Below, in pieces: positions 1,701 through 32,713 of a stretch of 64,000 bases of DNA; position 1 is the stretch's first letter, and every line of letters starts with the position of its first letter. This DNA comes from an uncultured Acidobacteriota bacterium. Its GTDB lineage: Bacteria > Acidobacteriota > Blastocatellia > RBC074. The position numbers and the translations under genes were made by a program. The notes under the pieces were generated by a model. It saw nothing but the letters and a program-made list of their open reading frames with translations, was not told the DNA's origin and did no database searches. The stretch is taken from the NCBI GenBank assembly GCA_963796275.1, contig CAWCKY010000003.1, positions 320,001-384,000 on the forward strand, written 5' to 3'.

Positions 1701-2492
1701 CTATTCGATGAGCGGAGGAGTAAAGTTATAAGGCGGCCACGGGCCGGTGATCTCAAAGGTCAGCCCTTGTTCAGCCAGTTCGGCAGAGGCCCACTCGACG
1801 CGCCCGCGGAGATCGGCCCGGACGATTTTCGGAGTCAGGAAGGCCCAGTTCAAAACGATCTCCGCGGCGCCTTCTGAGTTTGCGGTTGCTATCACTTTGC
1901 GAGCACGGAGATCGGTGGCAAACCCGCGCAAATCATCTGCTACTCGGGCACAGGTCTTCTGCAGCCATTGATGCAGTTCCTTCTCAGCCGACACTCGCGC
2001 CCGCTGCTCCAGCAAATAACGCATCCCTGGAGGCAGGGAGGCGGGGTCCATTCCGGCCTGTTGACTTGACTGAAGCCCCTGCAGTGCTCTCTCCCGGTTC
2101 AGCATACCCTTGATGCCCCACTCCTCGTGATCTGTCATCCGATCAAGGAACTGAGATATGGTGCTCCCGTGTTTTCGCTGCAGCCCTTCCAAATTCTCCA
2201 GCGATGAGAAGATGGTGCCGAACCGGGCTGGAAACACAGGGGAATGAGCCATCGCCTGTTCGATAACTGCTTCGTGGCGCCAGGCTCGGATCCCCAGCCA
2301 GGAGATATCCTCCATTTTGGCCTCGGCTGCCGGCCCGGAAAAATCCGCCACCATAACGGTGCTCAGAACTGCCGCGAGACCGGCAAACCTCCGCACTTGA
2401 AGCGGCTGCTCGCCATCCACACCGGTTCCGCTGAGCTCCGGCAGCAGGCCGGACCGGGCGAAACAGAAGAGATAATAGGCAGTATTTGACAT
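1701..2492 (-). CDS. gvpL: GvpL/GvpF family gas vesicle protein
   Basis: YYLFCF N-terminus, HEAVIEQAM..PVFPARFGTIF, EEWGIK, LNWAFL and C-terminal TGPWPPYNF. Confidence 0.85.
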   Translation of the reverse strand: MSNTAYYLFCFARSGLLPELSGTGVDGEQPLQVRRFAGLAAVLSTVMVADFSGPAAEAKMEDISWLGIRAWRHEAVIEQAMAHSPVFPARFGTIFSSLENLEGLQRKHGSTISQFLDRMTDHEEWGIKGMLNRERALQGLQSSQQAGMDPASLPPGMRYLLEQRARVSAEKELHQWLQKTCARVADDLRGFATDLRARKVIATANSEGAAEIVLNWAFLTPKIVRADLRGRVEWASAELAEQGLTFEITGPWPPYNFTPPLIE

Positions 2493-2494
2493 AT

Positions 2495-3976
2495 TTATTT
2501 CGCGCTCTCAGCCGCCGTTTCGCCATCGCTCCACGAAGCCGCGTCCCCACGTCGCCGCGTCGCTTCTCCAGACTTCTCCAGACTTTCTTTGATGGCAATA
2601 CCATATTCTTTGAGCTTCGACTGGATCGTCTTATAGTCGATTTGAAGCAGGCGGGATGCCTTTGCTTTATTGCCCCTGGTGAGGGACAGCACCTGGATCA
2701 AGACCTCGCGCTCGACCGCGATAGTACTGCGGCGCACTATCTCTTTCAGGGGAAGCTGGCGCCAGGGTAGCACAGGCGGCGGGGAATGGCGCGCCTGGCA
2801 GGGCTGCTGCACTAGGTTGAGATGCTTATCGGTGATGATGTCATCGGCCAGGAGCGTTGCCCGGCGAATTGTGGAGCGAAGCTGTCTCACGTTTCCCGGC
2901 CAGTTGTAAGCCAGTAGTGCCTCGGTTGCAGCTCTCGAAAAACCGCCGACGGATTTTTTTAATTCCGCATTGGTCAGTTCCAGAAACCGGTTGGCCAAGT
3001 AGAGAATGTCTTCACTCCGGTCCCGCAGTGGTGGGATAACGATGGTAAATTCGTTCAATCGGAAGAAGAGATCCTCCCGAAACGAGCCCAACGCCGCCAG
3101 GGTCTGGAGGTCCTGGTTGCTGGCAGCCAGGACGCGCACATCGACCGCCATCGGCTTGGAACCTCCGACGCGATTGATCACTTTCTCCTGCAGCACCCGG
3201 AGCAATTTAGCCTGCGCTGCCAGGGAGAGATTGGGGATCTCATCGAGTAACAACGTCCCCTGCTGGGCCTGTTCAAAGCGCCCGACCTTTCGGGCGTGAG
3301 CGCCGGTGAAGGCTCCTCGCTCGTGCCCGAATAGTTCACTCTCGAGCAGCGTCTCCGGGATGGCCCCACAATCGATCGGGATGAAAGGCGCCCGCGCTCT
3401 CAGACTCGCCTGATGAATAGCGCGGGCGACCAGCTCCTTGCCGGAACCGGTCTCGCCGATGATGAGCACGCTGAAGTTCGATCTTGCCACCCGATCGACA
3501 TCGGCGATGAGACGGCTGATGACATTGCTGGTTCCCATCATCTCCCGGAGTGAACTTTGATCACTCGTTTGGTAGCGGGGCTTGAGTTGGCGAGGGCGAT
3601 TCCGCTCCTTCAACGCCTTAGAGACCAACTGAATGACTTCATCGAGATCGAAAGGTTTGGCCAGATAGCTGTATGCTCCAGCTTTCATAGCTTCGACCGC
3701 GTTCCGCACTGCCGCATAGCCGTTGAGTAAGATGACCGGCAGCCCCTCATCCATATCCCTAACGTGCCGCAGCACTTCCAATCCGGTCAGGCCCGGCATC
3801 CTGTGGACGACAAGCAGGAGATATGGAGTCTCGCTGCGTATCATCTTCAATGCCGTCTCCCCATTAGACGCCACCAACGGGGTCAGGCCCTCCATCTCGA
3901 TGAGGTGAGCCAGCAATTCACGCGTGCTCTCCTCATTGTCCACGATCAGGATCTTGCAATTGACTGTAGTCATCAC
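2495..3976 (-). CDS. Sigma54-dependent NtrC-family activator (receiver-AAA+-Fis HTH) with atypical receiver
   Basis: GETGSGKE Walker A, ESELFGHERGAFTGA, FREDLFFRLN, WPGNVRQL and GNKAKASRLLQI HTH; the receiver Asp site reads LLLVVHRMP. Confidence 0.92.
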   Translation of the reverse strand: MMTTVNCKILIVDNEESTRELLAHLIEMEGLTPLVASNGETALKMIRSETPYLLLVVHRMPGLTGLEVLRHVRDMDEGLPVILLNGYAAVRNAVEAMKAGAYSYLAKPFDLDEVIQLVSKALKERNRPRQLKPRYQTSDQSSLREMMGTSNVISRLIADVDRVARSNFSVLIIGETGSGKELVARAIHQASLRARAPFIPIDCGAIPETLLESELFGHERGAFTGAHARKVGRFEQAQQGTLLLDEIPNLSLAAQAKLLRVLQEKVINRVGGSKPMAVDVRVLAASNQDLQTLAALGSFREDLFFRLNEFTIVIPPLRDRSEDILYLANRFLELTNAELKKSVGGFSRAATEALLAYNWPGNVRQLRSTIRRATLLADDIITDKHLNLVQQPCQARHSPPPVLPWRQLPLKEIVRRSTIAVEREVLIQVLSLTRGNKAKASRLLQIDYKTIQSKLKEYGIAIKESLEKSGEATRRRGDAASWSDGETAAESAK

Positions 3977-4792: not shown

Positions 4793-7223
4793 CTAATGCC
4801 GCAATGCCACTAGCGGATCAAGCTTCATTGCTCTGCGCGCGGGCAAATAACAAGCGAGCAACGCAACACTCATCAACAATAGCGCAACGCCCCCGAACGT
4901 CAGCGGGTCAGTTGCACTCACCTCGAAGAGCAACGTCTTCATCAACCGAGTCAATGCCAATGCGCCGCCCAGACCAATTAGTATACCGATGAGCGTCAGT
5001 CTCATTCCCTGTCCGATAACAAGTTTCATTACGTCGCCCCTGTGCGCGCCGAGCGCCACCGAATCCCGATCTCGTGCCTGCGCTGCGTGACTGTATAACT
5101 CAGCAAGCCATATAGCCCCACGCTGGCGAGCGTCAGTCCCAACAGCGCGAACGCGCCGAGCAACACCAGATTGAACCGGCGTGACGAAGCAGAGTTGGCC
5201 ATCAGTTGTTCGATAGTCTGAATGTTGGAGATAGATTGATCTTTGTCTACGGCCCAAACCCGATCGCGCACTGAGGCAATCATCTGAAGCGGGTTGCCGC
5301 CGGTGCGCACTACCAGGGTCATATAGTTGTTATTCTGGATTTGCGCCAGCGGGAAATAAACTTGGGGATTGGCTTCCTCGTCCAATGCGGAGTGTTTGAT
5401 ATCTTTTAAGACGCCCACGATCTCGCGAGAGACGCTTCGAAAGCCGATGCGCTTGCCGAGCGAGTCTTCTCCGGGCCAGAAGTATTGCGCCGCCGCTTCA
5501 TTGATAACAACCACTGGCGGCGCATTGACGCCGTCGCTTTCAGCGAGCAGTCGGCCTCTTTGCAGCGGGATGCGCAGCGTCTTGAAAAAGTCCGAACTGA
5601 CTTGACAGATTCCGGCGTTGAAGCTTTCACCGGGCGGCAGCGGCCTGCCTTCGATAGCAAAGTCTGCGCTCCACAATGCGCCACTGAGCGGCAGTGGATA
5701 GGCCGCTGCTGTGGCTTCCACACCTGGTAATGAGCGCACGGGTTCCAGTGTCTGTTGAAAAAAGTTTGCCCTCTGGGCGCCCGCGTATTTTCCGCGAGGC
5801 AGTTGGATATCCATCGTCAAAACGCGCTGTGGATCGAGTCCCGGATCAACCCTGATCATCCGCTCAAAACTCCTGAGCAGCAATCCCGCTCCGATCAGCA
5901 ACACAAAAGCCAGGGCCACCTCGCTAACAATCAGCATGCTTCGTAAACGATGGTGCGGCGCTCCGGTAGCACTGCGCCCCCCCTCTTTGAGTGTCTCGTT
6001 GAGGTATGGTCGCGAAGCCCGAATGCCAGCAGCAGGCCGAAAACAATCCCGGCTAGCAGCGAGATGAGGAAGGTGAAACACGCTACACTGGTATCCAGTC
6101 GGATATCGTCCGTGCGCGGCAGATTAGCGGGGCTGAGCACCGGCAGCAGCTCAATACCCCACCAGGCCAGACACAGACCAAGCGTGCCCCCGCTGACAGC
6201 CAGCAGCAGGCTTTCCGTTAGCAACTGCCGCACGACACGCCAGCGGCCGGCGCCGATAGCTGCGCGAATCGCCAACTCCTTTTGCCGCGCGGCGGCGCGC
6301 GCCAGCAAGAGATTAGCGACATTCGTGCACGCAATCAACAAGACGAACCCTACAGCTCCCAGCAACACCAGTAAAGCCGTCTGAACCCTGCCGACGATCT
6401 GTCGTTGCAGGGCTACTACCCGCACATTTCCGCCGTTATTGGTCTGCGGATATTGCTCAGCCAGACGGCGAGCGATATCCTCCATCTCAGCTTGCGCACC
6501 TGCGATGCTGACGCCCGCTTTGAGCCGCGCCAGCACGGTCAGATAGCCTCCCTGGCGGCTGCTCAATTGCCCAGGCGTGAAAGCGGTAGGCAGATAAATA
6601 TCAACTTGATCGGCGAACTGGAAAGCTGCTGGAAGATAGGCTTTGCGCGGGAAATGGAAATCGGGCGGCAGCACGCCAATAACAGTGTGGACTTCATTGT
6701 TTAGCGTGATCGTCTGCCCAACGAGTTTTGGGTCTAAGCCGAAGCGCCGCTGCCACAACCCGTGACTGATGAGCGCGACGCGAGGCGCACCTGGCTGCTC
6801 TTCTTCAGGCAGAAACGTGCGCCCAAGCATAGCGCTGATGCCCACCAACGAGAAGAGACTGGCCGAAGCGCGCACGCCGCCCACGAACTCCGGCTCGCCA
6901 CTGCCTGTCAGGTTGATGTTATGCGAGTGCAGGGCCGCCATTCGCTCAAAGACATGATTTTGATTGCTCCAATCTACGAAATCCGCTACGCCCACTGGAA
7001 ATACGGGCAAGCCATACCTTGCCTCATGAATCGGATAATGTATCCAGACCATCACCAACGCTGCAGGATCGCGGTACGGCAGCGTGCGCAGTAATACACC
7101 GTTGACGACGCTGAAGATGGCCGTGTTTGCGCCAATGCCCAGCGCCAGCGTGAGGACAGTAATCACCGTGAATCCGGAATTTTTCAGCAACATTCGTATG
7201 CCATAACGCAGGTCTTGAAACAT
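4793..7223 (-). pseudogene. ADOP family (MacB/FtsX duplicated) ABC permease with two frameshifts (real or sequencing error)
   Basis: [12 protein letters not shown]...[13 protein letters not shown] through to LPARRAMKLDPLVALRH, split over three frames; apparent 1-bp deletions near 6024 and 5060 (IR[M]ALGA). Confidence 0.85.
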
Positions 7224-8793: not shown

Positions 8794-10172
8794 GTGAAAA
8801 CTATGACTTATGAATTTGGCCTGTATCGCTTCGATCCAAGTACCGGTAAGTTATTTAGTTCCGGCAATCCGATAGATATTGGACCACGGCTGGCCGAACT
8901 GCTAACGATCTTTATGCAGCACCACGGACAGGCGCTGGGAGACGAAGAGTTACTGGAGATGCTCTGGCCTGGCGACCAGAACAAGGGTGGAGAGAATCTA
9001 GCTGCTAACATCTTTAATCTGCGGAAGAAGCTCGGCGCAGGGCAATATATTGAAAGGATTGCCGGACGCGGATATCGTTTTGTCGGCGCCGTGAAAATGA
9101 TCGATCCAGATGCTTCGCCGCAGAGCTATCCGCTGCCGCCGGGCGGTGCCGTACCGCTCGATTCACCGTTCTACATTGCGCGGAGAACGGATGATGAGTT
9201 TTATAAGGCGATTGCGCGCCGCGACAGCATCGTCCTGGTCAAAGGTGGGCGGCAGGTAGGCAAAACCTCTTTGCTCGCCCGCGGGCTGCAAATCGCTCGC
9301 GAATCCGGAGCCACCGTCATCCTGACGGATTTGCAGCATCCGTCAGGCGAAGCTTTCTCAAGCGTGGAAAAGCTGCTGCTCGAGCTGGGAGAACGAATCG
9401 CTGGCCAGATGAATTTGAAGACCAGACCTCACGATGTGTGGAGCAGTCTGCTCAGCGCCAGCGCCAATTTTCACAATTATCTGCAACGCGAAGTGTTAGG
9501 CAAGATATCCTCTCCACTGGTTTGGGGGCTTGACGAAATAGACCGGCTGTTCGGATTTGATTACGCAAGCGAAGTGTTCGGACTGTTCCGGTCCTGGCAT
9601 AACTTGCGCGCACTGGAACCCTCAGGACCGTGGCGGCGGATGACGCTGGCCATGGCCTATGCAACGGAAGCCCACCTGTTCATCACTGATTTGAATCAAT
9701 CGCCATTTAACGTCGGCACCAAGCTTGTACTCGAAGACTTGACCTACGATCAAGTCGCCGAACTCAACCGGCAATATGGCGCACCACTCAAAGACGAGTC
9801 GGAGATCGCGCGATACATCGCTATGGTTGGCGGGCACCCTTACCTGGTGCAGCGGGGCCTTTACGAAATGACCGAGCACGGTTTAGACCTCGCTTCAATC
9901 GAAGGGAATGCCGATTACGATGAGGGAATATTCGGCGAACATCTGCGACGGATGTGGGTTTCACTGACCCGCGACGCTGATTTGTGTAATGCCGTGCGCG
10001 ATCTGTTGCAGGCCAAGCGGGGATTGGCGATCACCAACTTCTACCGACTGCGCAGCGCAGGGGTGCTGGTCGGTGATTCAGCACACATGCGCAGTTACGG
10101 TGCCAACTTTACGCCAAGTTTTTGAAGAAGCATCTTTTCTCCCCCGACAGCCCGGAGGTTTTTGATGATTGA
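8794..10172 (+). CDS. OmpR-type winged-HTH + AAA_35 (STAND-like) ATPase, frameshift near 10087
   Basis: YEFGLYRFD...[10 protein letters not shown]...[11 protein letters not shown]; [41 protein letters not shown]; the expected tail [13 protein letters not shown] is in another frame ending TGA 10170-10172. Confidence 0.85.
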
Positions 10173-13100
10173 GTCTCCTCGCTTTTTTCGTGATTTGAGC
10201 TTGACCGATCGCGTTGAGTTCTTCGTCACTGGCGGGACAATGATGCCTGACGCGCCATCTTATGTTGAGCGGCAGGCCGATTGTGATCTGTATGACAGTC
10301 TCCTCGAGGGAAAATATTGTTATGTGTTGACCGCCCGCCAGATGGGGAAATCGTCGCTCACTGCGCGCACGGCGGCGAAATTGCGCCAGGTTGGCATCGG
10401 TGCTGTCGTGGTCGATCTGGCGGCGATCGGGCGCAACCTGACTGTCGAGCAATGGTATGGGAGCGTCTTGAGCTGGATTGGGAGAGGCATTGAGTTATCG
10501 GAAGGCGAGCTGGAAGAATTCTGGCAGTCGAGGCCGCTGCTCGGCCCGGTGCAAAGATGGATGTGCGCATTGCGCGAAATCATTCTTCCTCGCTATCAAG
10601 CTCAACTAGTCGTTTTCGTGGATGAAGTCGATTACCTGCTGGATTTGCCGTTCCCGATGGACGAGTTTTTCGCAGCGGTCCGCGAATGTTACAACATGCG
10701 CGCGGAAGACGCCGTGATGCATCGATTGACGTTTTGTCTGGTAGGTGTGGCGACGCCATCGGACCTCATCCGAAACAAGCGCACTACGCCATTCAACATC
10801 GGCCGGCGAATTGAATTGCACGATTTTACGGTGGCGGAGGCCGCACCGCTCGCGCGCGGGCTGAGACGCGACGATAAATTGAATGACTCCCTGCTCAAAC
10901 GCGTGTTGTATTGGACAAACGGTCATCCTTTTCTTACCCAACGTCTGTGTCGAGCTATAGCTGATGATGCTGGCGTCGAAGGTAAAGGTGACGTTGATCG
11001 TTTATGTAATGACTTATTTCTCACGCGCCGCGCACAGGAGTTAGATGATAACCTGCTTTTTGTGCGAGACAGTATACTTCGCAGCGAAGAGGACAAGGCT
11101 GCTCTGCTCGACTTGTACGGGAAAGTGAGAAGGGGCAAACGTGTGGAAGATGATAACACCAACACGCTTGTCATTATTTTACGTTTGTCGGGGGTCACGC
11201 GAACAGCAGACAATTACATTAAAGTTCGCAACCGCATCTACAAACGCGTTTTCGATCATGAATGGGTTGAGAGAAACATGCCTGATGCGGAATTGCGGCG
11301 GCAGCGCACGGCATACCGCCGAGGTCTATGGCGAGCCGGATTATTTGGTGGCGTCATCCTCTCTCTCATCGTGGCACTTGCAATCAATGATGTCAGAAGA
11401 CAGAAGGCCGCGCGAGACGTTGCCCAGAGCCTGCTATTGGCAGCGCAACCGCAGATATTACCGGATGAGATCGAAAAAGCTTATGCGTCCAGGGCTAAAG
11501 CGGAGAATCTGATTCGGATGGTTGCTTACAAAAATCATATCAAACAAGCGCAGGAGGCGTGGGAAGAATCCAATGTTGCTCGGGTCGAAGAGCTGTTGAA
11601 CTTCTGTCGACCGAAGGGTGGAGAGCAAGATCTCCGCGGGTTTGAGTGGCACTACCTTTGGCAAGCGAGCCATCAGGAAAGCCGATCTCTGAAACGTGAG
11701 AATCCGGTTGTAGCGTTACAATTCGCGCCGGACGGCAAGCGAATTGCTATTGGTGAATCTTTACAACCGGTAGATAGTGAAAAGTCAAAATACAGGATTG
11801 AATTCCTAGATTTGGATCGGGCAGTAACAATTGATTCGTTTGAGACGCAGTCAAGAGGTGATTTCAACAGAATGATCTTCACTCACGATTCGCGCAAAGT
11901 TCTGGTCGATGACGACCAGAATAGGGCCAGCTTATTGGATATGAAATCCGGCAAGAGCCTGGCTATCTTCAAAGGTCATGATCAGTCGTTGTCAGCGATT
12001 AATATATCAAGTGATGGACAAAGGATTGTGACGGGGGATACGCGAGGAAGGCTGCAATTTTGGGAAGTAGCAAAAGAGCCAAAGAGCAGAAGGCAGGAGA
12101 AACAGCAGCAGAACGTTACCTGGGTCGACCTCTCGCGGAATGGGAACCGGGTTGCGAGCGCAACAGGATCTAACGCGGTGAAAATATGGGATTTCTCTAC
12201 CGGGCGTGAACTGATGTCGCTGGAAACCAAAGAAGGAGTCTTCACGGTTGCTGCCTTCTTTCCGGATGGTCGCCATCTTCTGACCGCGACAAAAGACGGA
12301 GCTATGCAGGTCTGGGATCTTCGTGCAAGGGCAATCACGGCCAAATTAACGGGACATTTTGGTTCGCTTGTAGCGCTTGCATTCTCTCCTGACGGAGCGA
12401 AACTGGCAACAGCCAGCGACGACAGAACCGCCAGACTTTGGGATCTCGCAGCCCGGCGCGAACTCATCTCAATCAAAGGACACGGCTAATGGGTTTCTGC
12501 TATTTCCTGGTCACCTGATGGCAAACTACTCGCCACGGGCAGCGCAGACAGGTACGTCAAGATTTGGGATGTCGAAACGATGCTCAAAGAGGGCGTCGCA
12601 GTTGAGGGATCACGCGTAGAATCTTATTGGGCATCAGCGTTTTCTGAAGACGGCTTCCCCCTGGCGGTCGCCAAGACCAGCGATGGGAAAGTGAAGATAT
12701 TGCGCGTGCCATCTGGCCAAGAGGTGTCAACATTGTATGAATCGTACAACGACCTCCAGTTCGCGGTCTTCTCTCCTGATGCCGAAAGGGTAGCAACCTC
12801 TGGGATAGGGCCTTCGATAAGTATCTGGGATGTCCGGAGCGGAAAGAAAATAGTGTCATTGGCCGCGAAGACCGAGAATGTTTTTACGGTGGCCTTCTCA
12901 CCCGATGGGAAAAAGCTAGCTTCCGTTTACGATAACGATCGTACGTTGAAATCATGGGATACGACGACAGGGCAGGAATTATCTTCGCTCAAAGCCGACA
13001 ACAAGCTCTCATATCGGATAGCATTCTCGCCCGACGGGACGACCCTGGCTGCCGCTTGCGACAATGGCAATGTTATCCTCTGGAATATCGATACTGGTCA

Positions 13101-13474
13101 GTCAGTGCCTATCAAAGCACACAATGGCGTTGTCAGCACCATTGCCTTCTCATCAGACGGATTGAAACTTGCGACCGGGGGAAAAGACAACGCCGTCAAA
13201 TTGTGGGATGTGAAAACGGGGCGGAAATTGCTTGATATGGGACAGGCGGAATCTATTATATCGCGCAACCTTTTCACCCGACGGCAAAAATCTGATCACC
13301 GGCAATACTGAAGGTACAGTGATTATATGGAATGTCCTAACAGGACAGGAACTGATGATCCTGCATAAGCACGCAAGTTATGTGACTTCGATAAATTTCT
13401 CCAACGACGGAAGAGGTTTGGTTACTAGTGGCGAAGATGGGTCGGTAAAAGTCTGGCGGTTAACCGAACAATAG
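10162..13474 (+). pseudogene. AAA_35 ATPase - TM - WD40 repeat protein with in-frame TAA (12487) and frameshift (~13255)
   Basis: SYVERQAD, ARQMGKSSL, FVDEVD, TPFNIG, TM GLFGGVILSLIVALAI, DLRGFEWHYLW and many GH..FSPDG..WD repeats continuing across the lesions. Confidence 0.85.
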
Positions 13475-13488
13475 TAGTAACCCGTGAG

Positions 13489-13566
13489 TAGTTGATAGGT
13501 TGATAGTTGATAGTTCGTATACACTGTGGTAACAACATATACAAACTATCGACTATCGACTATCTT
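13489..13566. repeat. Heptamer palindrome (GTTGATA)n...(TATCGAC/TATCAAC)n
   Basis: gttgataggttgatagttgatagtt ... aactatcgactatcgactatc; related copies at 26011/26425 and 28465. Confidence 0.8.
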
Positions 13567-13600
13567 ATCGGAAGCCATTCCTCATCGATCGGGAAGTCAC

Positions 13601-13622
13601 GCTAGGGAATTGAATCCCTAGC
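13601..13622. promoter_or_regulatory. 8-bp inverted repeat ~100 bp upstream of the candidate sigma54 site (possible UAS or REP)
   Basis: GCTAGGGA-attgaa-TCCCTAGC. Confidence 0.35.
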
Positions 13623-13702
13623 TATCACCCTTCACCGAATCTCACACAGCAAAATCATTGCAAACACAGGATCGACTGGCAGGCCGCGGCGGCGGCGTGT
13701 TG

Positions 13703-13717
13703 TGGTCCAGGCCTTGC
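13703..13717 (+). promoter_or_regulatory. Candidate sigma54 -24/-12 promoter for the gvp operon
   Basis: TGGTCCAGGCCTTGC = TGG-N8-TTGC (GG-N10-GC), ~70 bp before the gvpA start. Confidence 0.55.
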
Positions 13718-13786
13718 CTTACTGAAGACCGGTTAGCCAGGACACTCCCTGCCTGGCCGCGATATTTTATTTTGAAAGGAGAGGTA

Positions 13787-14060
13787 ATGATGGCGAATGT
13801 AGCCAGAATCTTCTATTGAATCTCCCAACCTGGCGGAGATGCTCGAACGCATCCTGGACAAGGGTATAGTGATTGATGCCTGGGTCAGGGTGACGTTGAT
13901 CGGGATCGAACTGCTCGCGGTGGAAGCGCGAGTGGTGATCACTTCGATCGACAGATATTTGCAATATGCTGAAGCTATCGGCCTCATAGTACCAGTGGCG
14001 CGGCCTCCGGTAATTGACACACCGGAACCGGCAGCGACACCGACACCAGCACCGGCATAA
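13787..14060 (+). CDS. gvpA: Gas vesicle structural protein GvpA (apparent +1 frameshift near 13808; open ORF from 13839)
   Basis: [53 protein letters not shown]; strong RBS and ATG at 13787 are out of frame by 1. Confidence 0.9.
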
Positions 14061-14066
14061 ACCAGG

Positions 14067-14156
14067 CCATTAGCCATTGGTCATTGGCGGTAATGATGTT
14101 GAGACGCAATGACCAATGGCAGATGGAAAATGACAGATGACAAATGAAAAATGGAG
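14067..14156. repeat. Heptamer palindrome (CCATTGG/TCATT...AAATGAC family)
   Basis: gccattggtcattg ... caatgaccaatggc agatggaaaatgacagatgacaaatgaaaaatgg; similar to 59601-59733. Confidence 0.7.
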
Positions 14157-14163
14157 GAGCCAT

Positions 14164-14922
14164 ATGCAGAGTGAAGCCGCTTTTCAGAACGGACAATATC
14201 TCTATGCCATTATTGGTAACAGACAAAAGCAGGAGTGGAACATCTGCGGCATCGATGGCAATGCCGTCCACAACATCACCGAAGGGGGGGTATCTGCTGT
14301 CGTCAGCGACATCTCCTACCAGCGGATACGCCAGGAACGCCGCCATCTAGCAGGCCATCGGCAGGTCCTCAAGCTCTTGATGGAAAAGACCACACTGCTC
14401 CCACTGCGCTTCGGAACGATCGCCGAGAACGCGGATGATGTGCGCCGCATCCTCTCTCTCAACGGGGAGCGATTCCTAGCCCAGTTGAACCGTGTGTCTG
14501 GTAAGGTGGAGATGGGGCTGCGCGTGAGATGGGATGTACCGAACGTCTTCGGATATTTCGTCACCCGGGAGCCGGAACTTCGCCACATGCGCGATCGATG
14601 TTTCGACGCAAAGGACCAACCCACAGAAAAAGATAAGATCGAGATCGGGCAGTACTTTGATCGTCTTCTCAACGGCGAGCGTGAGGTCTGCATGCGGCGA
14701 GTCGAGGAGATCATCGCCTGCTGCTGCGCGGAAATCAAATCGAATCCCTGCCGCAATGAGCGAGAGGTGATGAACCTCGCTTGCCTGGTAGAGCACGGCG
14801 CTAGCGCGGAGTTCGAGGCTGCCGTCATGGAGGCAGCTCGGCTCTTCAACGACGATTTTGCGTTCGACTATAACGGACCCTGGGCCCCACACAACTTCGT
14901 CGAACTCAACCTGGAACTTTGA
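14164..14922 (+). CDS. gvpF: GvpF/GvpL family gas vesicle protein
   Basis: GQYLYAII, LLPLRFGTIA, GKVEMGLRVRWD, MNLACLV, GPWAPHNFV; GGAGGAG RBS. Confidence 0.88.
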   Translation: MQSEAAFQNGQYLYAIIGNRQKQEWNICGIDGNAVHNITEGGVSAVVSDISYQRIRQERRHLAGHRQVLKLLMEKTTLLPLRFGTIAENADDVRRILSLNGERFLAQLNRVSGKVEMGLRVRWDVPNVFGYFVTREPELRHMRDRCFDAKDQPTEKDKIEIGQYFDRLLNGEREVCMRRVEEIIACCCAEIKSNPCRNEREVMNLACLVEHGASAEFEAAVMEAARLFNDDFAFDYNGPWAPHNFVELNLEL

Positions 14923-14946
14923 AACAGGGGGGACCTCAGAAAGCTG

Positions 14947-15204
14947 ATGCTGCTCGTTGATGACATCCTGCTATCTCCTATCACCAGTTTCTTCTGGATA
15001 CTGCGGGAGATTGGAAAGGCCGCGCAACAAGAACTGGCCAGTGAGAGAGAGGCGGTCACTGCTGAATTGGGGTATCTGTATATGATGCTGGAGACCGGAA
15101 TGATAACCGATGCGGAGTTCGATGCGCGGGAGCATGAGTTGCTCGATCGACTCGATCAATTGCAGGGGCAGCCTGCTGAGGATGATTCAGAGGAAACGAG
15201 TTGA
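14947..15204 (+). CDS. gvpG: Gas vesicle protein GvpG
   Basis: MLLVDDILLSP...LYMMLETGMITDAEFDAREHELLDRL. Confidence 0.85.
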   Translation: MLLVDDILLSPITSFFWILREIGKAAQQELASEREAVTAELGYLYMMLETGMITDAEFDAREHELLDRLDQLQGQPAEDDSEETS

Positions 15205-17168
15205 GAATGACCAATCGAACCACACCATTTTTTCTAACCAGTTGCGGGGCGCAGCTACTGTTCTTTGGAGGCAAAGGCGGTGTGGGCAAGACAACCTGTG
15301 CAAGCGCCACTGCGCTCCATTTTGCGAAAGCGGCCCCTGAAAGCTCTTTTATGCTGGTCTCGACCGACCCTGCGCACTCGCTCGCTGACAGCCTGGCGAA
15401 CACCGCCGTCCCCCCCAACCTGACTGTTCTCGAACTCGATCCGCAGCGGGCTCTGGCCGATTTCAAGGCCGAAAATGGTTGGAAACTGGAGGAGATCGCA
15501 CGACACGGCACCTTTCTCGATGATGACGACATACGGAAATTTCTCGATCTCTCGTTGCCCGGATTGGATGAGCTCATGGCTTTTCTGGAGATCACCCGGC
15601 ACGTCGAAGAGAAGGCCGGCCAGTATATCGTCATCGATACGGCTCCCACCGGGCATACTCTGCGACTGCTGGCGATCCCGGCTCTCATCCGTAAATGGCT
15701 GGCAGCGCTCGATACATTGTTGGCCAAGCACCGCTATATGAAAAAGATATTCAGCGGGACCTATCGGCGCGACGAGGTGGATCTTTTTTTGGCGTCGATG
15801 ATGGCCTCGCTCGAGCACATGAAGAATTTGCTGAGCGATCCGGATCGCTGCCGCTTTGTGCCTGTCATGCTTGCGGAAGCGCTGAGCGTCAGCGAAACGG
15901 TGGCGATGGTTCGTGAGCTGGAGAGTTTGAAAGTGCCGGTCGTCGAGATCGTCGTCAACAAGCTCTATCCCTCAAACCCATGCCCGGTCTGTACTGAAGG
16001 GCGAAGGCGACAGATGCGGGAACTGGAGAAGCTTCAAGCCCAGGATCTCTTGTCGGGGTATACATTCTGGGGCATGCCGCTCCACCCACGCGAAGTGCGG
16101 GGCGAGGAATCGCTCGGCACGTTCTGGGGAGACCTCACCGCCCTGACCGAGCCTGATCCCACCCCGTTCCGCCCGTCCGCGCCGGCCTCGCAACAGGTGG
16201 AAGTGGTCGATCAGGCTCCTTCGCCCATGGCTTCATTCTTGATCTTTGCCGGTAAGGGAGGTGTGGGCAAGACCTCGCTGGCCTGCGCGACGGCGCTCCA
16301 GCTGGCGAGCGGGCCTCAGGAGCGGAATATCCTGCTGGTCTCGACTGACCCAGCCCACTCCCTGGCTACCTGCCTGGCGGTTCCGATAGGACCCAGCTTG
16401 ACACGCCTGACCCCCGGGCTGGCGGCAATCGAGACAGATGCCGTGGCCGAGTTCCAGGCGCTGAAGACGGAGTATGCCGAAGAGGTTGAGCAATTTCTGG
16501 GCGCCTTGATGAATATGGATCGAATTGATCTGGTCTTCGATCGCCAGGTGATCGAACGCCTCTTGGACCTCTCACCGCCTGGCCTGGACGAAGTGATGGC
16601 CCTGACCCGGGTAATGGAGTTGATGGCGGAGGAGCGCTTCGATCTCCTGATCCTGGACTCGGCGCCGACCGGGCATCTGCTCCGTCTTCTGGAACTGCCG
16701 GAGGTGATCGATAAGTGGCTGAAAGTGATTTTCGAGTTGTTGCTCAAGTACAAACATCTCTTCCGTATGCCGAAACTTTCACGGCGATTGATCGAGATAT
16801 CTCGAAACCTCAAACGACTGCGCATCATGCTGCGCGATCCGGCCGGCGCAGCCCTCTATGCGGTCAGCATCCCAACCGAGATGGCATTCGAGGAGACCAG
16901 GGACCTGATCGCCGCCTGCAAGCGAATGGGCATAAGTGTCCCCGTGCTCTTCCTCAATCAGGCGACTCCTCCAAGCCAGTGCTCGCTCTGCTCGGCACTG
17001 TATGAGGAAGAGTCGACCGTCAGAGAGAAGTACCGGCAGGTTTTTACCAGCCGGCACCAGACCCTGGTCTATCGCTGCGGCGAGTTGTCCGGCATAGAAC
17101 AGCTGGGAGAGTTGGGAGCGGCGCTCTACCAACCTGAACTTAAGGATCGGAGGGCCGATGTTCTCTGA
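15201..17168 (+). CDS. Tandem two-domain ArsA/Get3-family ATPase
   Basis: Two GKGGVGKT P-loops, two STDPAHSL, DTAPTGH/DSAPTGH, PGLDE in both halves, CPVC and CSLC motifs. Confidence 0.92.
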   Translation: MRMTNRTTPFFLTSCGAQLLFFGGKGGVGKTTCASATALHFAKAAPESSFMLVSTDPAHSLADSLANTAVPPNLTVLELDPQRALADFKAENGWKLEEIARHGTFLDDDDIRKFLDLSLPGLDELMAFLEITRHVEEKAGQYIVIDTAPTGHTLRLLAIPALIRKWLAALDTLLAKHRYMKKIFSGTYRRDEVDLFLASMMASLEHMKNLLSDPDRCRFVPVMLAEALSVSETVAMVRELESLKVPVVEIVVNKLYPSNPCPVCTEGRRRQMRELEKLQAQDLLSGYTFWGMPLHPREVRGEESLGTFWGDLTALTEPDPTPFRPSAPASQQVEVVDQAPSPMASFLIFAGKGGVGKTSLACATALQLASGPQERNILLVSTDPAHSLATCLAVPIGPSLTRLTPGLAAIETDAVAEFQALKTEYAEEVEQFLGALMNMDRIDLVFDRQVIERLLDLSPPGLDEVMALTRVMELMAEERFDLLILDSAPTGHLLRLLELPEVIDKWLKVIFELLLKYKHLFRMPKLSRRLIEISRNLKRLRIMLRDPAGAALYAVSIPTEMAFEETRDLIAACKRMGISVPVLFLNQATPPSQCSLCSALYEEESTVREKYRQVFTSRHQTLVYRCGELSGIEQLGELGAALYQPELKDRRADVL

Positions 17169-17430
17169 GGAATCTCTTCTGGAGAACCAGAAAAAAGAGG
17201 CGGAGCGGGACGCGCCAACCGCGCTGGTCTGTTCCGACACCGAGCGTGTCTCGCTCTGCGAACTCCTCGACCGAATCCTTAACAAGGGGGTGGTGATGGC
17301 GGGAGCAGTGACGATCTCAGTGGCGGACGTAGACCTGCTCTCCCTCGATCTGCGCATGGTTCTGACATCCGCCGCGATACTTAGCAAGAAGTGGCAGCCG
17401 GAGTCCGTAACAGTATCAGGTGATAAATGA
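17158..17430 (+). CDS. GvpA/J/S-family accessory gas vesicle protein
   Basis: VSLCELLDRILNKGVVMAGAVTISVADVDLLSLDLR. Confidence 0.85.
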   Translation: MFSEESLLENQKKEAERDAPTALVCSDTERVSLCELLDRILNKGVVMAGAVTISVADVDLLSLDLRMVLTSAAILSKKWQPESVTVSGDK

Positions 17431-17792
17431 AACCGATCGAAGAACTCAGAGTCGAGTTTGAAACTGTCAGTGATTTTGCCCGCGTCATGCAGGCCGGAGC
17501 ACCGGCGGTGGCGACTACCTCACAGGCCGGTCCCCGGATCAACCTTGATCCCGATCAAGTCAAGAACGGGTTAGGCCAGTTGGTACTTACGCTGGTCAAA
17601 TTGCTGCATGAACTCTTGGAGCGCCAGGCCTTGCGGCGCATCGAAGCCGGTACTCTGACTCCGGACGAGATTGAGCGGATCGGGATGACTCTCATGAGAC
17701 AGACGGAGGAGATTAAACGTCTTCAGCGAGAGTTCGGCTTGAACGACGAAGACCTCAACCTCGACCTGGGGCCGCTTGGTACTCTGTTTTGA
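17427..17792 (+). CDS. gvpK: Gas vesicle protein GvpK
   Basis: GLGQLVLTLVKLLHELLERQALRR...EDLNLDLGPLGTL. Confidence 0.92.
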   Translation: MKPIEELRVEFETVSDFARVMQAGAPAVATTSQAGPRINLDPDQVKNGLGQLVLTLVKLLHELLERQALRRIEAGTLTPDEIERIGMTLMRQTEEIKRLQREFGLNDEDLNLDLGPLGTLF

Positions 17793-17796
17793 GGCA

Positions 17797-17913
17797 GGTT
17801 TCAGTTTTCAATCAAGTGATCTCGAGCGAAAACTGAGGAGTTACAACCTAAAACCTGAAACTGATAATTTGAAAAGACTTGAAACTGAAAACTGAAAACT
17901 GAAAACTGATAAC
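17797..17913. repeat. Heptamer repeat array (CTGAAAA)n with short inverted arm
   Basis: gtttcagttttca ... aaactgaaaactgaaaactgaaaactgataact; same family as 1601-1700. Confidence 0.75.
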
Positions 17914-17922
17914 TTATACAAG

Positions 17923-18249
17923 ATGCAAAATAAAGGCATATCACATTTTGGCCCGCCTTCCACCATGCAAATGTTTGATGTCCTGGAGCGCGTGCTGGAC
18001 AAAGGAGTCATCATTGCGGGTGATATCAGGATCAAGCTGATAGACGTCGAGCTACTCACTATTCAAATCCGGCTTGTGATCTGCTCCATCGATAAAGCCC
18101 GAGAGATAGGGATGGATTGGTGGGCTGACCACCCGCTCTTCAGCAACCGCCGAGAGGCGGAGTTGCAGGCAGCTACACTTGGCCGGATTGAAGAGAGATT
18201 AACGAAGCTGGAAGCCTCCCTGAAACACGCGCCTCACCGCGAGGAATGA
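17923..18249 (+). CDS. gvpJ: Gas vesicle protein GvpJ
   Basis: DVLERVLDKGVIIAGDIRIKLIDVELLTIQIRLVICSIDKAREIGMDWW. Confidence 0.88.
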   Translation: MQNKGISHFGPPSTMQMFDVLERVLDKGVIIAGDIRIKLIDVELLTIQIRLVICSIDKAREIGMDWWADHPLFSNRREAELQAATLGRIEERLTKLEASLKHAPHREE

Positions 18250-30778: not shown

Positions 30779-32095
30779 GTGCAAGCGGCAGCACGATTAA
30801 ATGATCCGATAGCTCATACCAGCGCGATGGAGGGATTGATCGGGGGAGCGATAGCCGGCGCCGTAATAGGCGCAGGACTGATGGTTGGTGCTGCGCTCAT
30901 TATCGGGACAGGCGGATTGGCAGCACCGGCCTTGATCGGCGCAGCGCTCGCCGGTGCAGCAATGGGCGCGTGGGTCGGCGAGTTCGCAGGATCGCTTTCA
31001 TTCTTCAACAACGAAACTGGGAATATCGCCACTGGATCGCCCGACATCTTCGTCAATTTCAAGCCGCTGGCGCGGGCGATAGCAGACACGGGGAAATGCA
31101 ATAAAGACGGACCAGAGCCGACACAGATCGCGACAGGCTCGAGTAACGTATTCATCAACGGATTCCCGGCGGCCCGAGTCGATGACAAGCTGATTTGCGG
31201 AAGCTTTATCGTCGAAGGCAGTCCCAATGTCTTCATTGGCGGGGGACAGGTAACGTTCAAGACTGTTGAGGAAGAAGTGCCGTGGTGGCTTCACGGCATA
31301 GTGATGGGTGGCGGAATAGCGGGGGCTTTGTTACTGGGCGGGTGGGCGGTGATTCCGGGCATGGTGGGCGGGTTTGCCGCAGGCTATGTGGGTGGCGGAG
31401 TGATGGGATGGGTGGGACGACAAGCAGGGGATTGGTTGAGTGAAAAGGTTGGCGGGACGCCATCGGATTGGGAGAAGGCGGGTGCGTTCGTGGGGCAGGC
31501 GGTAGGCGGGTGGCTTGGAGCGAAGGGTGGGCCGAAGGCATCGGAATTAGCCAGGCGGATCGAGGTCGAGCCGAACACGCTGGGGATGAATGGTGGTAAC
31601 ATTCGTATCCCACCTCGGCAGAGGCCGTTGAAAACTAAAGAGATGCAACGTGCTTACAAAGGTGAGGAAATACCGGATAATCCGAACAACTGGCTTGGGG
31701 GAAGTAGCACGGTCGAATACCTTAACGAGGCTGGGAGGGCAGAGAAACTTTTGACCGTCAAGGATGGAAAGCTCTACGGCGCCGATGGAAAATTATTTGA
31801 CACATCAGAGGCCTCGGCTATTTTCAGTGATAGGGCAATATACGTTATGGACGAGAATGGAAACTTTTATGCATCTCTTAGACAAGAGCGTGGTGTATTT
31901 CATCATTCCAGCATTCTTGCAGGGAAGCCGGTCGCCGGGGCAGGCGAGATTGAAGTCGCCAGAGGAGAAATTCAATATATCAATCGCAGCAGTGGACACT
32001 ATCGACCTACTCCAGAAATGTTGCAACAAACAGTCGACGAACTCAGAGTGAAAGGCTTGCGATTCGGAGATTGGGTAATCGATGATGGTTTTTGA
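30779..32095 (+). CDS. PAAR-domain polymorphic toxin with TM linker and HSS...SGHYxP C-terminal domain
   Basis: AARLNDPIAH, GSPDIFVN..PLARA, GSSNVFINGFPAARVDD..CG..GSPNVFIGG, LGMNGGNI pre-toxin-like motif, FHHSSILAGKPVAGAGE...SSGHYRP. Confidence 0.88.
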   Translation: MQAAARLNDPIAHTSAMEGLIGGAIAGAVIGAGLMVGAALIIGTGGLAAPALIGAALAGAAMGAWVGEFAGSLSFFNNETGNIATGSPDIFVNFKPLARAIADTGKCNKDGPEPTQIATGSSNVFINGFPAARVDDKLICGSFIVEGSPNVFIGGGQVTFKTVEEEVPWWLHGIVMGGGIAGALLLGGWAVIPGMVGGFAAGYVGGGVMGWVGRQAGDWLSEKVGGTPSDWEKAGAFVGQAVGGWLGAKGGPKASELARRIEVEPNTLGMNGGNIRIPPRQRPLKTKEMQRAYKGEEIPDNPNNWLGGSSTVEYLNEAGRAEKLLTVKDGKLYGADGKLFDTSEASAIFSDRAIYVMDENGNFYASLRQERGVFHHSSILAGKPVAGAGEIEVARGEIQYINRSSGHYRPTPEMLQQTVDELRVKGLRFGDWVIDDGF

Positions 32096-32122
32096 AGCAG
32101 AAGCGAGATAGGAGAAGATGAT

Positions 32123-32713
32123 ATGTTAGAAGATCTACACGACTGCATGGCAAATATCTGCTTTTGGGCGATGTATGAAAAGACCATCGATCGCGCAACG
32201 GACCGCATTCTTGGTAAATACATATACGACCCCATCAGCAGAGTGTCTCCGAAGGAGCGGGTGAGACAAATACATGAAGCGCTTGCAAGCAATGAAAAGT
32301 TGAGCGAAAGCGATATAGGTGTACCTCAAGACTACAGATGGTCAGAGGAAGCATTTCGAGAGCTATTAACTCAATTAGTCGATCGGATCGAATTTTATGA
32401 GTCGAACGGATTACCTAAAATTCAAGATGTCAGCAAGCTGACCGAAAGACTAGAAAAGTTGCGCCCTCTAGTGCAACCCCTAGCGGAGACAACCACGTTA
32501 TCCGCTGCCATCAAAAAATTTGAGGAAAAAGTGCTGCCCAATCTCGGTGATTACAACGCTCGTATGGATACTAGGGAATTACTCCGCAATGTATTATGGT
32601 TTGATACTAGCAAAATCCTACCAGTGTTTTTTACTCCAGATGTTACTGATTCTACATTTCGAGAATATTTACGAAATATCGCCTGGAAAATAGAGGATGC
32701 TAGAAGATCTTAG
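32123..32713 (+). CDS. Probable cognate immunity protein (internally duplicated)
   Basis: Immediately downstream of the toxin, lower GC; repeated SEEAFRELLTQLVDRIE / TDSTFREYLRNIAWKIE. Confidence 0.65.
   Translation: MLEDLHDCMANICFWAMYEKTIDRATDRILGKYIYDPISRVSPKERVRQIHEALASNEKLSESDIGVPQDYRWSEEAFRELLTQLVDRIEFYESNGLPKIQDVSKLTERLEKLRPLVQPLAETTTLSAAIKKFEEKVLPNLGDYNARMDTRELLRNVLWFDTSKILPVFFTPDVTDSTFREYLRNIAWKIEDARRS

Follow-up and report, generated by a model that had tools for sequence, protein, structure and literature searches.

The gas-vesicle (gvp) gene cluster described here lies in a stretch of 64,000 nucleotides (nt), referred to below as the window (positions 320,001 to 384,000 of contig CAWCKY010000003.1), from an uncultured soil member of the Acidobacteriota, whose assembly amounts to 9.46 Mb in 7 contigs and is 94.7% complete. 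Seven genes on one strand (13790-18249), assigned from open reading frames (ORFs) and Pfam matches, follow one another in the order gvpA-gvpF-gvpG-ATPase-gvpS/J-gvpK-gvpJ, the fourth encoding a tandem ATPase of the ArsA/Get3 family of 655 amino acids (aa). It is probable, in our judgement, that this is a known type of gvp cluster, in which a single-chain pseudo-dimer of the Get3/TRC40 branch is a conserved and translationally coupled core member with a chaperone role, and from which gvpN has been lost secondarily. Two of the elements of this picture are already in print: the pairing of gvp genes with such an ATPase since 2010, and the tandem Get3 type with CxxC motifs since 2019.

The ATPase gene overlaps both of its neighbours. 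The stop codon of gvpG (15202-15204) overlaps the TTG start of the ATPase gene at 15201, a further ATG being present at 15207, and the 3' end of the ATPase gene (17168) overlaps the start of gvpS/J (17158) by 11 nt. An earlier reading of the DNA without database searches (the sequence-only reading) had proposed the gene order from gvpF to gvpJ and both overlaps (15201-15204 and 17158-17168), and these are confirmed by the ORFs and by Pfam; its inventory overlooked a frameshift in gvpA, a second gvpF/L gene and an NtrC-type regulator. Of the genes described as conserved in all gvp clusters, namely gvpA, gvpC and gvpFGKLN (PMC9501494), the set of gvpA, gvpF/L, gvpG and gvpK is present, together with two GvpA-related minor genes. 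In a search of the whole assembly, three Gas_vesicle matches are obtained, all of them from this cluster, and the ATPase gene is the only clear member of the ArsA family. GvpN is missing from the window, as had been noted before, and also from the whole assembly, where the best match to TIGR02640 reaches 40.9 bits against a cut-off of 266.8 in a search that reads through stop codons, so that a broken gvpN would be detectable. The reported lack of gvpO and gvpC likewise extends to the assembly, in which neither has a Pfam match, with the limit that neither search gave a match in any control genome and both therefore lack a positive control.

Judged by its sequence, the ATPase is Get3-like, as the sequence-only reading had supposed, and not the subunit of an arsenite pump. 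Two stretches match PF02374, residues 18-312 and the C-terminal half, corresponding to two P-loop halves. Each half has the switch-II motif D[TS]APTGH, a PGLDE motif (120-124 and 460-464) and a CxxC motif (CPVC at 261-264, CSLC at 594-597), the latter two being found just as the sequence-only reading had described them. The protein passes the broad TRC40/GET3/ArsA model TIGR00345 with 382.6 bits (cut-off 135), and fails the ArsA equivalog TIGR04291 with 180.7 bits against a cut-off of 650, as well as NF041417 (254.4 against 800). The closest solved structure by sequence is C. reinhardtii ArsA1 (5zme, 1.5e-53), with both halves aligned; structures of Get3 and TRC40 come next at about 1e-40, and E. 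coli ArsA (1f48) ranks behind them at 7.8e-37. In the alignments with two fungal Get3 chains, 3ibg and 2woo, CPVC falls in the very columns of their CxxC, and CSLC is the equivalent site in the second half. A single ArsA served as reference, that of an E. coli plasmid, encoded in an arsR-arsH-arsD-arsA locus (L070). Its Cys115 aligns with a gap beside G121 and its Cys423 with G461, at the two PGLDE motifs of the ATPase; we take these two residues to be metalloid-binding cysteines of the plasmid protein. In the same alignment, helical inserts of 14 and 19 residues follow switch II of the two halves, and ArsA is devoid of both. The inserts agree with the definition of the TRC40 insert in the accessible text of a 2019 review, in which three essential cysteines are given for ArsA (PMC6593721). 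An HSP20 (alpha-crystallin) domain is not among the 14 Pfam matches of the ATPase.

It is extremely improbable that the gene encodes a genuine arsenite- or antimonite-stimulated ArsA that merely lies beside gvp genes. The name of the Pfam family, ArsA_ATPase, would point in this direction, as would the fold: with the AlphaFold2 model (pLDDT 91.6, pTM 0.92, alignment of 91 rows), a full-length Foldseek search is led by closed ArsA structures (TMq 0.68, 22-24% identity). Closed ArsA structures come out on top in this search because they, too, have two domains in one chain; single halves retrieve Get3 chains at TMt 0.73-0.80 and 29-31% identity. The marks of ArsA are all missing, since the equivalog score is far below its cut-off, the metalloid cysteines are absent and there is no ars operon context. 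As the sequence-only reading had stated, ars genes are lacking, no arsB, acr3, arsC, arsD or arsR being found among the 18 + 37 window ORFs scanned, a greedy selection that small genes may escape. Furthermore, the ATPase is split from the E. coli ArsA branch at 100/100 in the phylogeny presented below, and the gvp synteny is kept across phyla.

This synteny is accompanied by conservation of the protein itself. Orthologues at 50-57% identity (n=7) occur in Acidobacteriota, Thermodesulfobacteriota (including Desulfocicer vacuolatum) and Myxococcota, and all seven have the four cysteines and the two PGLDE motifs unchanged. A profile-free exhaustive search yields 7322 relatives at E <= 1e-3 and 715 at E <= 1e-30. 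Among 125 full-length members, made up of the query and 124 of the best 150 relatives (590-740 aa; 26 shorter or longer ones were left out), 86 have a CxxC in each half, 30 have none and 9 have it in one half only. Such a both-or-neither pattern is as expected of one shared site formed by four cysteines, although it is inflated by the relatedness of the sequences. Two acidobacterial tandem ATPase genes, G189:C2:978819-980747 (locus L031) and G147:C6:27540-29018 (locus L049), contain a single in-frame TGA each.

The order gvpF-gvpG-ATPase-gvpS/J-gvpK is identical in the window and in six of six orthologous loci. A gvpG gene is found directly upstream of the ATPase in the window, in all six close orthologous loci and in locus L052, and the position of gvpS/J after the ATPase is kept in six orthologous loci. 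In a Thermodesulfobacteriota metagenome-assembled genome (L018:3295-3588), an ORF for a GIY-YIG nuclease and two small ORFs stand between the ATPase and gvpS/J, and the adjacency is broken. Where the context is available, the full order in the orthologous loci is gvpA-(orf)-gvpN-(orf)-gvpF-gvpG-ATPase-..., with AAA_5 proteins that score 337-355 bits on TIGR02640, and GvpN exceeds its cut-off in 6/6 closest-orthologue genomes (5/5 genomes searched and the Desulfocicer locus). The small ORFs that flank gvpN in these relatives match no family and nothing in the window; they look like spurious arginine-rich frames and were set aside. Other proteins encoded in the gvp clusters of relatives are of the Cdc48-type AAA class, and in Desulfocicer a protein with a DnaJ-type CXXCXGXG zinc finger is encoded right after gvpK (for both kinds together, L019:5-1606, L019:13335-13673 and L021:2647-3954). 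The Cdc48-type and the DnaJ-type proteins have no counterpart in the window.

A phylogeny of 22 tandem ATPases was constructed with IQ-TREE, leaving out two single-domain rows, one locus without an ORF, and duplicate or unexamined loci. A split at 100/100 sets the gvp-type clade apart from the E. coli ArsA branch, which includes three acidobacterial tandem proteins without CxxC. Within the gvp-type clade, the window ATPase is nested among GvpN-bearing genomes with supports of 99/98 and 100/100, a position for which the simplest reading would be that gvpN was lost secondarily in the lineage of the window and that the ATPase did not arise as a replacement of GvpN.

The notion that this loss is a one-off oddity has been softened by a survey of the phylum. 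It covers 401 Acidobacteriota genomes, including that of the window, and an ATPase is regarded as linked if an ArsA-family gene lies <=5 kb from a Gas_vesicle match on the same contig. A Gas_vesicle match above the cut-off is present in 21 genomes, and 12 of these have a linked ATPase (G000, G310, G040, G056, G083, G147, G189, G239, G305, G341, G383 and G384). GvpN is found in only two of the 12, the close orthologues G147 and G239, and is absent from the other ten. Four further gvp-positive genomes have an ArsA-family match on another contig and no GvpN (G070, G107, G168, G238), in three GvpN occurs and the sole ArsA-family gene is single-domain and unlinked (G227, G257, G377), and in two both GvpN and a linked ATPase are missing (G365 and the 83% complete G245). 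The other GvpN-less clusters have the order F-G-ATPase-F/L-A-F/L-K-J-J together with histidine kinases, and their ATPases are 30-42% identical. Among the gvp clusters of the sampled phylum, those with the ATPase and without GvpN form the majority, in counts that describe and do not test, since the genomes are kin and five of the ten GvpN-less ones belong to a single family, f35.

These counts bear on the possibility that growth of the shell is powered by the Get3-like ATPase in place of GvpN, in a GvpN-independent route of assembly. We regard this as rather unlikely, although the arguments in its favour are several. The genome of the window lacks GvpN while the other six gvp genes are intact, and a relative of about 90% identity, described below, keeps the gvpA-to-gvpF junction with gvpA in frame. 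Of the 12 genomes with a linked ATPase ten are GvpN-less, three other gvp-positive genomes have GvpN and no linked ATPase, and the GvpN-less state requires at least two changes on the ATPase tree. According to the literature, gvpN mutants of Serratia and of haloarchaea yield only small bicones (PMC4982088, PMC9501494); therefore, a GvpN-less cluster would need a substitute to produce full vesicles. On the other hand, all six closest orthologues co-occur with GvpN, and the published clusters of four other groups contain both genes, according to the accessible part of the 2010 paper (PMC2963123). G245 and G365 do without either gene, and S. coelicolor is listed as gvpOAFG-JLSK, without gvpN, in the accessible part of another publication (PMC9501494). 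The two proteins belong to unrelated fold classes, SIMIBI P-loop and AAA+, and the related genomes of the survey are not independent of one another. The sequence-only reading had proposed a route instead of GvpN. For the clade of the window ATPase itself this is wrong; at the level of the phylum it may still apply.

In its broadest form, the proposal would be that gas-vesicle assembly in Acidobacteriota has a single dedicated motor, the tandem, zinc-clamped Get3-like ATPase, and that this protein can take over the task of GvpN, which we regard as rather unlikely. If it were true, the lineage of the window would have reached the GvpN-less state independently, by loss of gvpN from the cluster type with both genes, and two unrelated ATPases would be functionally redundant for the insertion of GvpA into the growing shell.

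It is quite unlikely that the cluster is a decaying remnant, with an ATPase devoid of present function. The frame break in gvpA, the missing gvpN and the broken neighbouring genes would be in keeping with decay, as would the position of the regulator and the second gvpF/L gene 11 kb away, with MacB/FtsX and STAND/WD40 genes intervening. As for gvpA, the sequence-only reading had described one open frame from 13787, which is not what the sequence holds. A good Shine-Dalgarno sequence precedes the ATG at 13787/13790, and the frame reads M(M)ANVARIFY and then meets a stop; the Gas_vesicle domain lies in the next frame, where it begins at 13827 and thus ahead of the ATG at 13839, and GvpA-like sequence is recognizable from about 13803. 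In three relatives GvpA starts with MAKVQK...SSSLAEVVDRILDKG, and the matches in the window are split, MANV... lying in one frame and the remainder in the next, which would place one surplus base at about 13805-13808.

A contig from a soil metagenome (706 nt, about 90% identical, spanning 13583-14272) has exactly one base fewer at 13808, by which the gvpA frame is restored, and in this relative gvpA runs directly into gvpF. The contig has A in place of the T of the ATG at 13787; therefore, 13790 is the likely start of gvpA. Nine of the 14 differences listed between the two gvpA sequences fall, by our own arithmetic, at third codon positions. Because a relative that has diverged by about 10% has the same gvpA-gvpF junction and mostly third-position changes, the gvpN-less arrangement is common to both and still looks to be under constraint. 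Two soil metagenomes contain 0.05-0.06 of the window's words; no sequencing run matches the full window and no RNA run is listed.

Essential genes such as rpoB and rpoC cannot be shattered in a living cell. In the same assembly, outside the window (G000:C6:1266086-1274588), rpoB is nevertheless found in 10 matches and rpoC in 8, across frames with internal stops. Therefore, the assembly has a high rate of indels or other errors, and the break in gvpA most probably belongs among these errors; as a sign of decay it was dropped, rpoB and rpoC being equally broken. Any call of a frameshift, pseudogene or split gene in this assembly is therefore doubtful without reads. The AAA_35/STAND-WD40 gene (10162-13474) has an in-frame TAA (12487-12489) within a WD40 repeat and a frameshift near 13230-13310, and the gene for a MacB/FtsX-type permease (4793-6081) is frameshifted between 5029-6081 and 4793-5257; these breaks, too, are probably assembly errors. 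The open frames of gvpF, gvpG, the 655-aa ATPase, gvpS/J, gvpK and gvpJ also argue against decay.

A further alternative is that the ATPase is a general targeting factor for tail-anchored membrane proteins, without a specific relation to gas vesicles. Tail-anchor targeting is the function of both Get3 and C. reinhardtii ArsA1, and the 2019 review expects the tandem homologues of bacteria to act in the same way (PMC6593721). A factor with a housekeeping function would be expected in many genomes. The tandem CxxC clade is restricted, in the 401 genomes, to gvp-positive ones (18 of 18 rows of the gvp-type clade) and mostly lies inside the gvp cluster, which argues against such a factor, and the translational coupling of the ATPase to gvpG and gvpS/J argues against it as well. 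We therefore consider this explanation very unlikely.

On the basis of these data, it is possible to sketch how a Get3-like chaperone could act in the cluster. The four cysteines would clamp the two halves of the ATPase with one zinc ion, and ATP-driven closure of the two helical subdomains would form a groove as client site. It could be imagined that this groove keeps a hydrophobic stretch of GvpA/J/S or of GvpG soluble, and that the client is passed on to the growing vesicle, so that the ATPase would have a holdase or delivery role. The sequence-only reading had likewise proposed that the pseudo-dimer would chaperone or load GvpA/J. In a prediction of the complex between the ATPase (91-row alignment) and GvpG (10-row alignment), run without controls, the score is 0.02 against a mark of 0.32, which counts neither for nor against GvpG as a client. 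In most lineages, it would work beside the AAA+ protein GvpN and not in its place. In the lineage of the window, after the loss of gvpN, it would be the only dedicated nucleoside triphosphatase (NTPase) of the cluster.

Several points weigh against this picture of a Get3-like chaperone in a cluster that has lost gvpN. The assembly is not complete, and gvpN may sit on missing sequence; the frameshift in gvpA could still be real. Conservation in the helical subdomain is highest in KHRYMK (residues 176-181), a charged stretch that points to a specific partner rather than to a generic greasy groove. As far as the structural model goes, the fold alone cannot separate ArsA from Get3; it is the sequence features that do so. 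Finally, the literature search found no experiment on any gvp-linked member of this ATPase family.

The relation to known systems may be considered next. The window ATPase resembles the gvp-linked ArsA homologues of 2010, which are described as two-domain proteins of about 640 aa inside gvp clusters, without arsR or other ars genes. According to that paper, the gvp clusters that contain them come from four phyla, and gvpN accompanies them in the cases from Bacteroidetes/Chlorobi, Geobacter and cyanobacteria; for the acidobacterial case L/F, J, K and M are listed and no N. Its authors propose for the ATPase that it energizes a step of biogenesis, and for the pair of ATPase and GvpN that they "energize distinct but related functions" (PMC2963123). 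The order A-F-G-ATPase-S/J-K-J of the window equals the GvpN-bearing type minus gvpN. The proteins are treated there as ArsA homologues that energize transport-like steps, and the accessible text notes neither the CxxC pair nor the likeness to Get3. The remark of the sequence-only reading on ArsA-family genes annotated close to gvp genes in other taxa understated the matter, as the link had been analysed and published in this paper. In 2017, ArsA was reported to co-evolve with eight gas-vesicle proteins in cyanobacteria (accessible part of PMC5464585).

A second likeness is to Group 8 of the 2019 review "The natural history of Get3-like chaperones", which comprises tandem proteins from Myxococcales and some Proteobacteria with a TRC40 insert and CxxC in both domains. 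Like these, the window ATPase has two Get3-like domains in one chain, each with CxxC, helical inserts and no alpha-crystallin domain, and one close orthologue (L020) is from the Myxococcota. The review calls this type unique and of unknown function; in its accessible text "gas vesicle" never occurs, tail-anchor targeting is predicted and Acidobacteria are not listed for the group (PMC6593721). In a text search of the literature, no publication was found that joins "gas vesicle" with "Get3", and for "gas vesicle" with "TRC40" only the 2010 paper was retrieved.

With C. reinhardtii ArsA1 (5zme/5zmf), its best match among solved structures by sequence, the window ATPase shares the single-chain pseudo-dimer and the PG[LV]DE motifs, but ArsA1 is a eukaryotic organellar protein of about 24% identity without CxxC at the aligned positions. 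Yeast and fungal Get3 and mammalian TRC40 have the P-loop, the switch motifs, PG[IV]DE and CxxC at the aligned position in common with it. Get3, however, is a single-domain homodimer that works with Get1/2/4/5, whereas the window protein consists of fused tandem halves; to our knowledge, no Get partners are to be expected in bacteria. The E. coli ArsA (1f48 and the plasmid protein) is likewise a two-domain chain of the same overall fold (TMq 0.56-0.60), but it has the metalloid cysteines and the ars context, lacks the helical inserts and is only 22-27% identical. GvpN, finally, is comparable as a dedicated NTPase of gvp clusters that is thought to drive growth of the shell. It differs by its unrelated fold, and it stands beside the Get3-like ATPase in all six closest relatives while being absent from the genome of the window.

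GvpA is very hydrophobic and prone to aggregation, and the way in which it is kept soluble and fed to the growing vesicle is a bottleneck in attempts to engineer gas vesicles into acoustic reporters. A holdase or targeting ATPase of the Get3 type within gvp clusters would be a concrete candidate for this feeding step. The window may be regarded as a natural experiment, in which a cluster of the type with both genes retains only the Get3-like ATPase. Should GvpN-less clusters give rise to full vesicles, both the role assumed for GvpN and the minimal gene set would have to be revised; if they make only bicones, they would be useful for small acoustic agents.

The coordinates of the cluster and of the elements associated with it are compiled in the following table.

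Table. Gas-vesicle genes and associated elements, with coordinates in the 64,000-nt window
Feature	Position	Strand	Evidence and remarks
Second gvpF/L paralogue	1701-2492	-	Pfam GvpL_GvpF 2e-46; also found by genome search; 11 kb off the main cluster
NtrC-type response regulator / sigma-54 activator	2495-3976	-	Pfam Response_reg + Sigma54_activat (1.4e-66) + HTH_8
Sigma-54-like -24/-12 element TGG-N8-TTGC (tentative)	13703-13717	+	Pattern scan; 87 nt upstream of gvpA start
gvpA (major shell protein)	13790-14060	+	Gas_vesicle ORF 13839-14060, Pfam 1.5e-13; frame broken by one base at about 13805-13808 in the assembly
Strong RNA hairpin between gvpA and gvpF	14067-14126	+	Folding -31.7 kcal/mol, z = -6.0
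gvpF	14137-14922	+	Pfam GvpL_GvpF 1.5e-61
gvpG, stop overlapping ATPase start	14947-15204	+	Pfam GvpG 4.9e-15
Tandem Get3/ArsA-family ATPase, 655 aa	15201-17168	+	Pfam ArsA_ATPase 1.3e-113, two stretches
GvpA-family minor protein (gvpS/M/J-like)	17158-17430	+	Pfam Gas_vesicle 6.5e-17
gvpK	17427-17792	+	Pfam GvpK 3.5e-33
gvpJ-like GvpA-family protein	17923-18249	+	Pfam Gas_vesicle 1e-15

The regulator and the second gvpF/L gene both have relatives in gvp clusters. The NtrC-type activator is 53.5% identical over 469 aa to a regulator within the gvp cluster of an acidobacterial relative (L021) and is probably a gvp regulator; the second GvpF/L is 27.5% identical to the GvpL encoded upstream of gvpA in locus L050. 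The element upstream of gvpA, taken together with the activator, suggests sigma-54 control of the cluster. The pattern TGG-N8-TTGC has 10 matches on both strands of the window, so that a single match is weak; in locus L050, TGGCAG-N5-TTGC is found at -105 upstream of its gvpA. A comparable control of gas vesicles, of the sigma-54 type, is exerted by GvrA in Serratia.

The gap between gvpA and gvpF measures 76 nt and contains a hairpin with perfect arms of 13 nt and without a T-run, as stable a structure being found in 0/200 shuffles. Scans of 13300-14200 gave 0 sites each for sigma-70 promoters and intrinsic terminators, the hairpin not being called as a terminator. It could set the ratio of gvpA expression to that of the downstream genes, and a comparable role has been described for other gvpA transcripts.

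Upstream of gvpA (13488-13565), runs of GTTGATAG units are followed by CTATCGAC units in an imperfect inverted arrangement; a repeat scan of 13440-13800 with seed 9 reported nothing. In one metagenome run (X2), the bin 13500-13560 reaches a depth of 151 from 14 contigs, and therefore the motif is repeated in other genomes. Elsewhere in the window (30779-32713), the gene for a prePAAR/PAAR-domain protein of 438 aa is followed by an ORF of 196 aa without a family match; the two may constitute an effector and immunity pair of type VI secretion.

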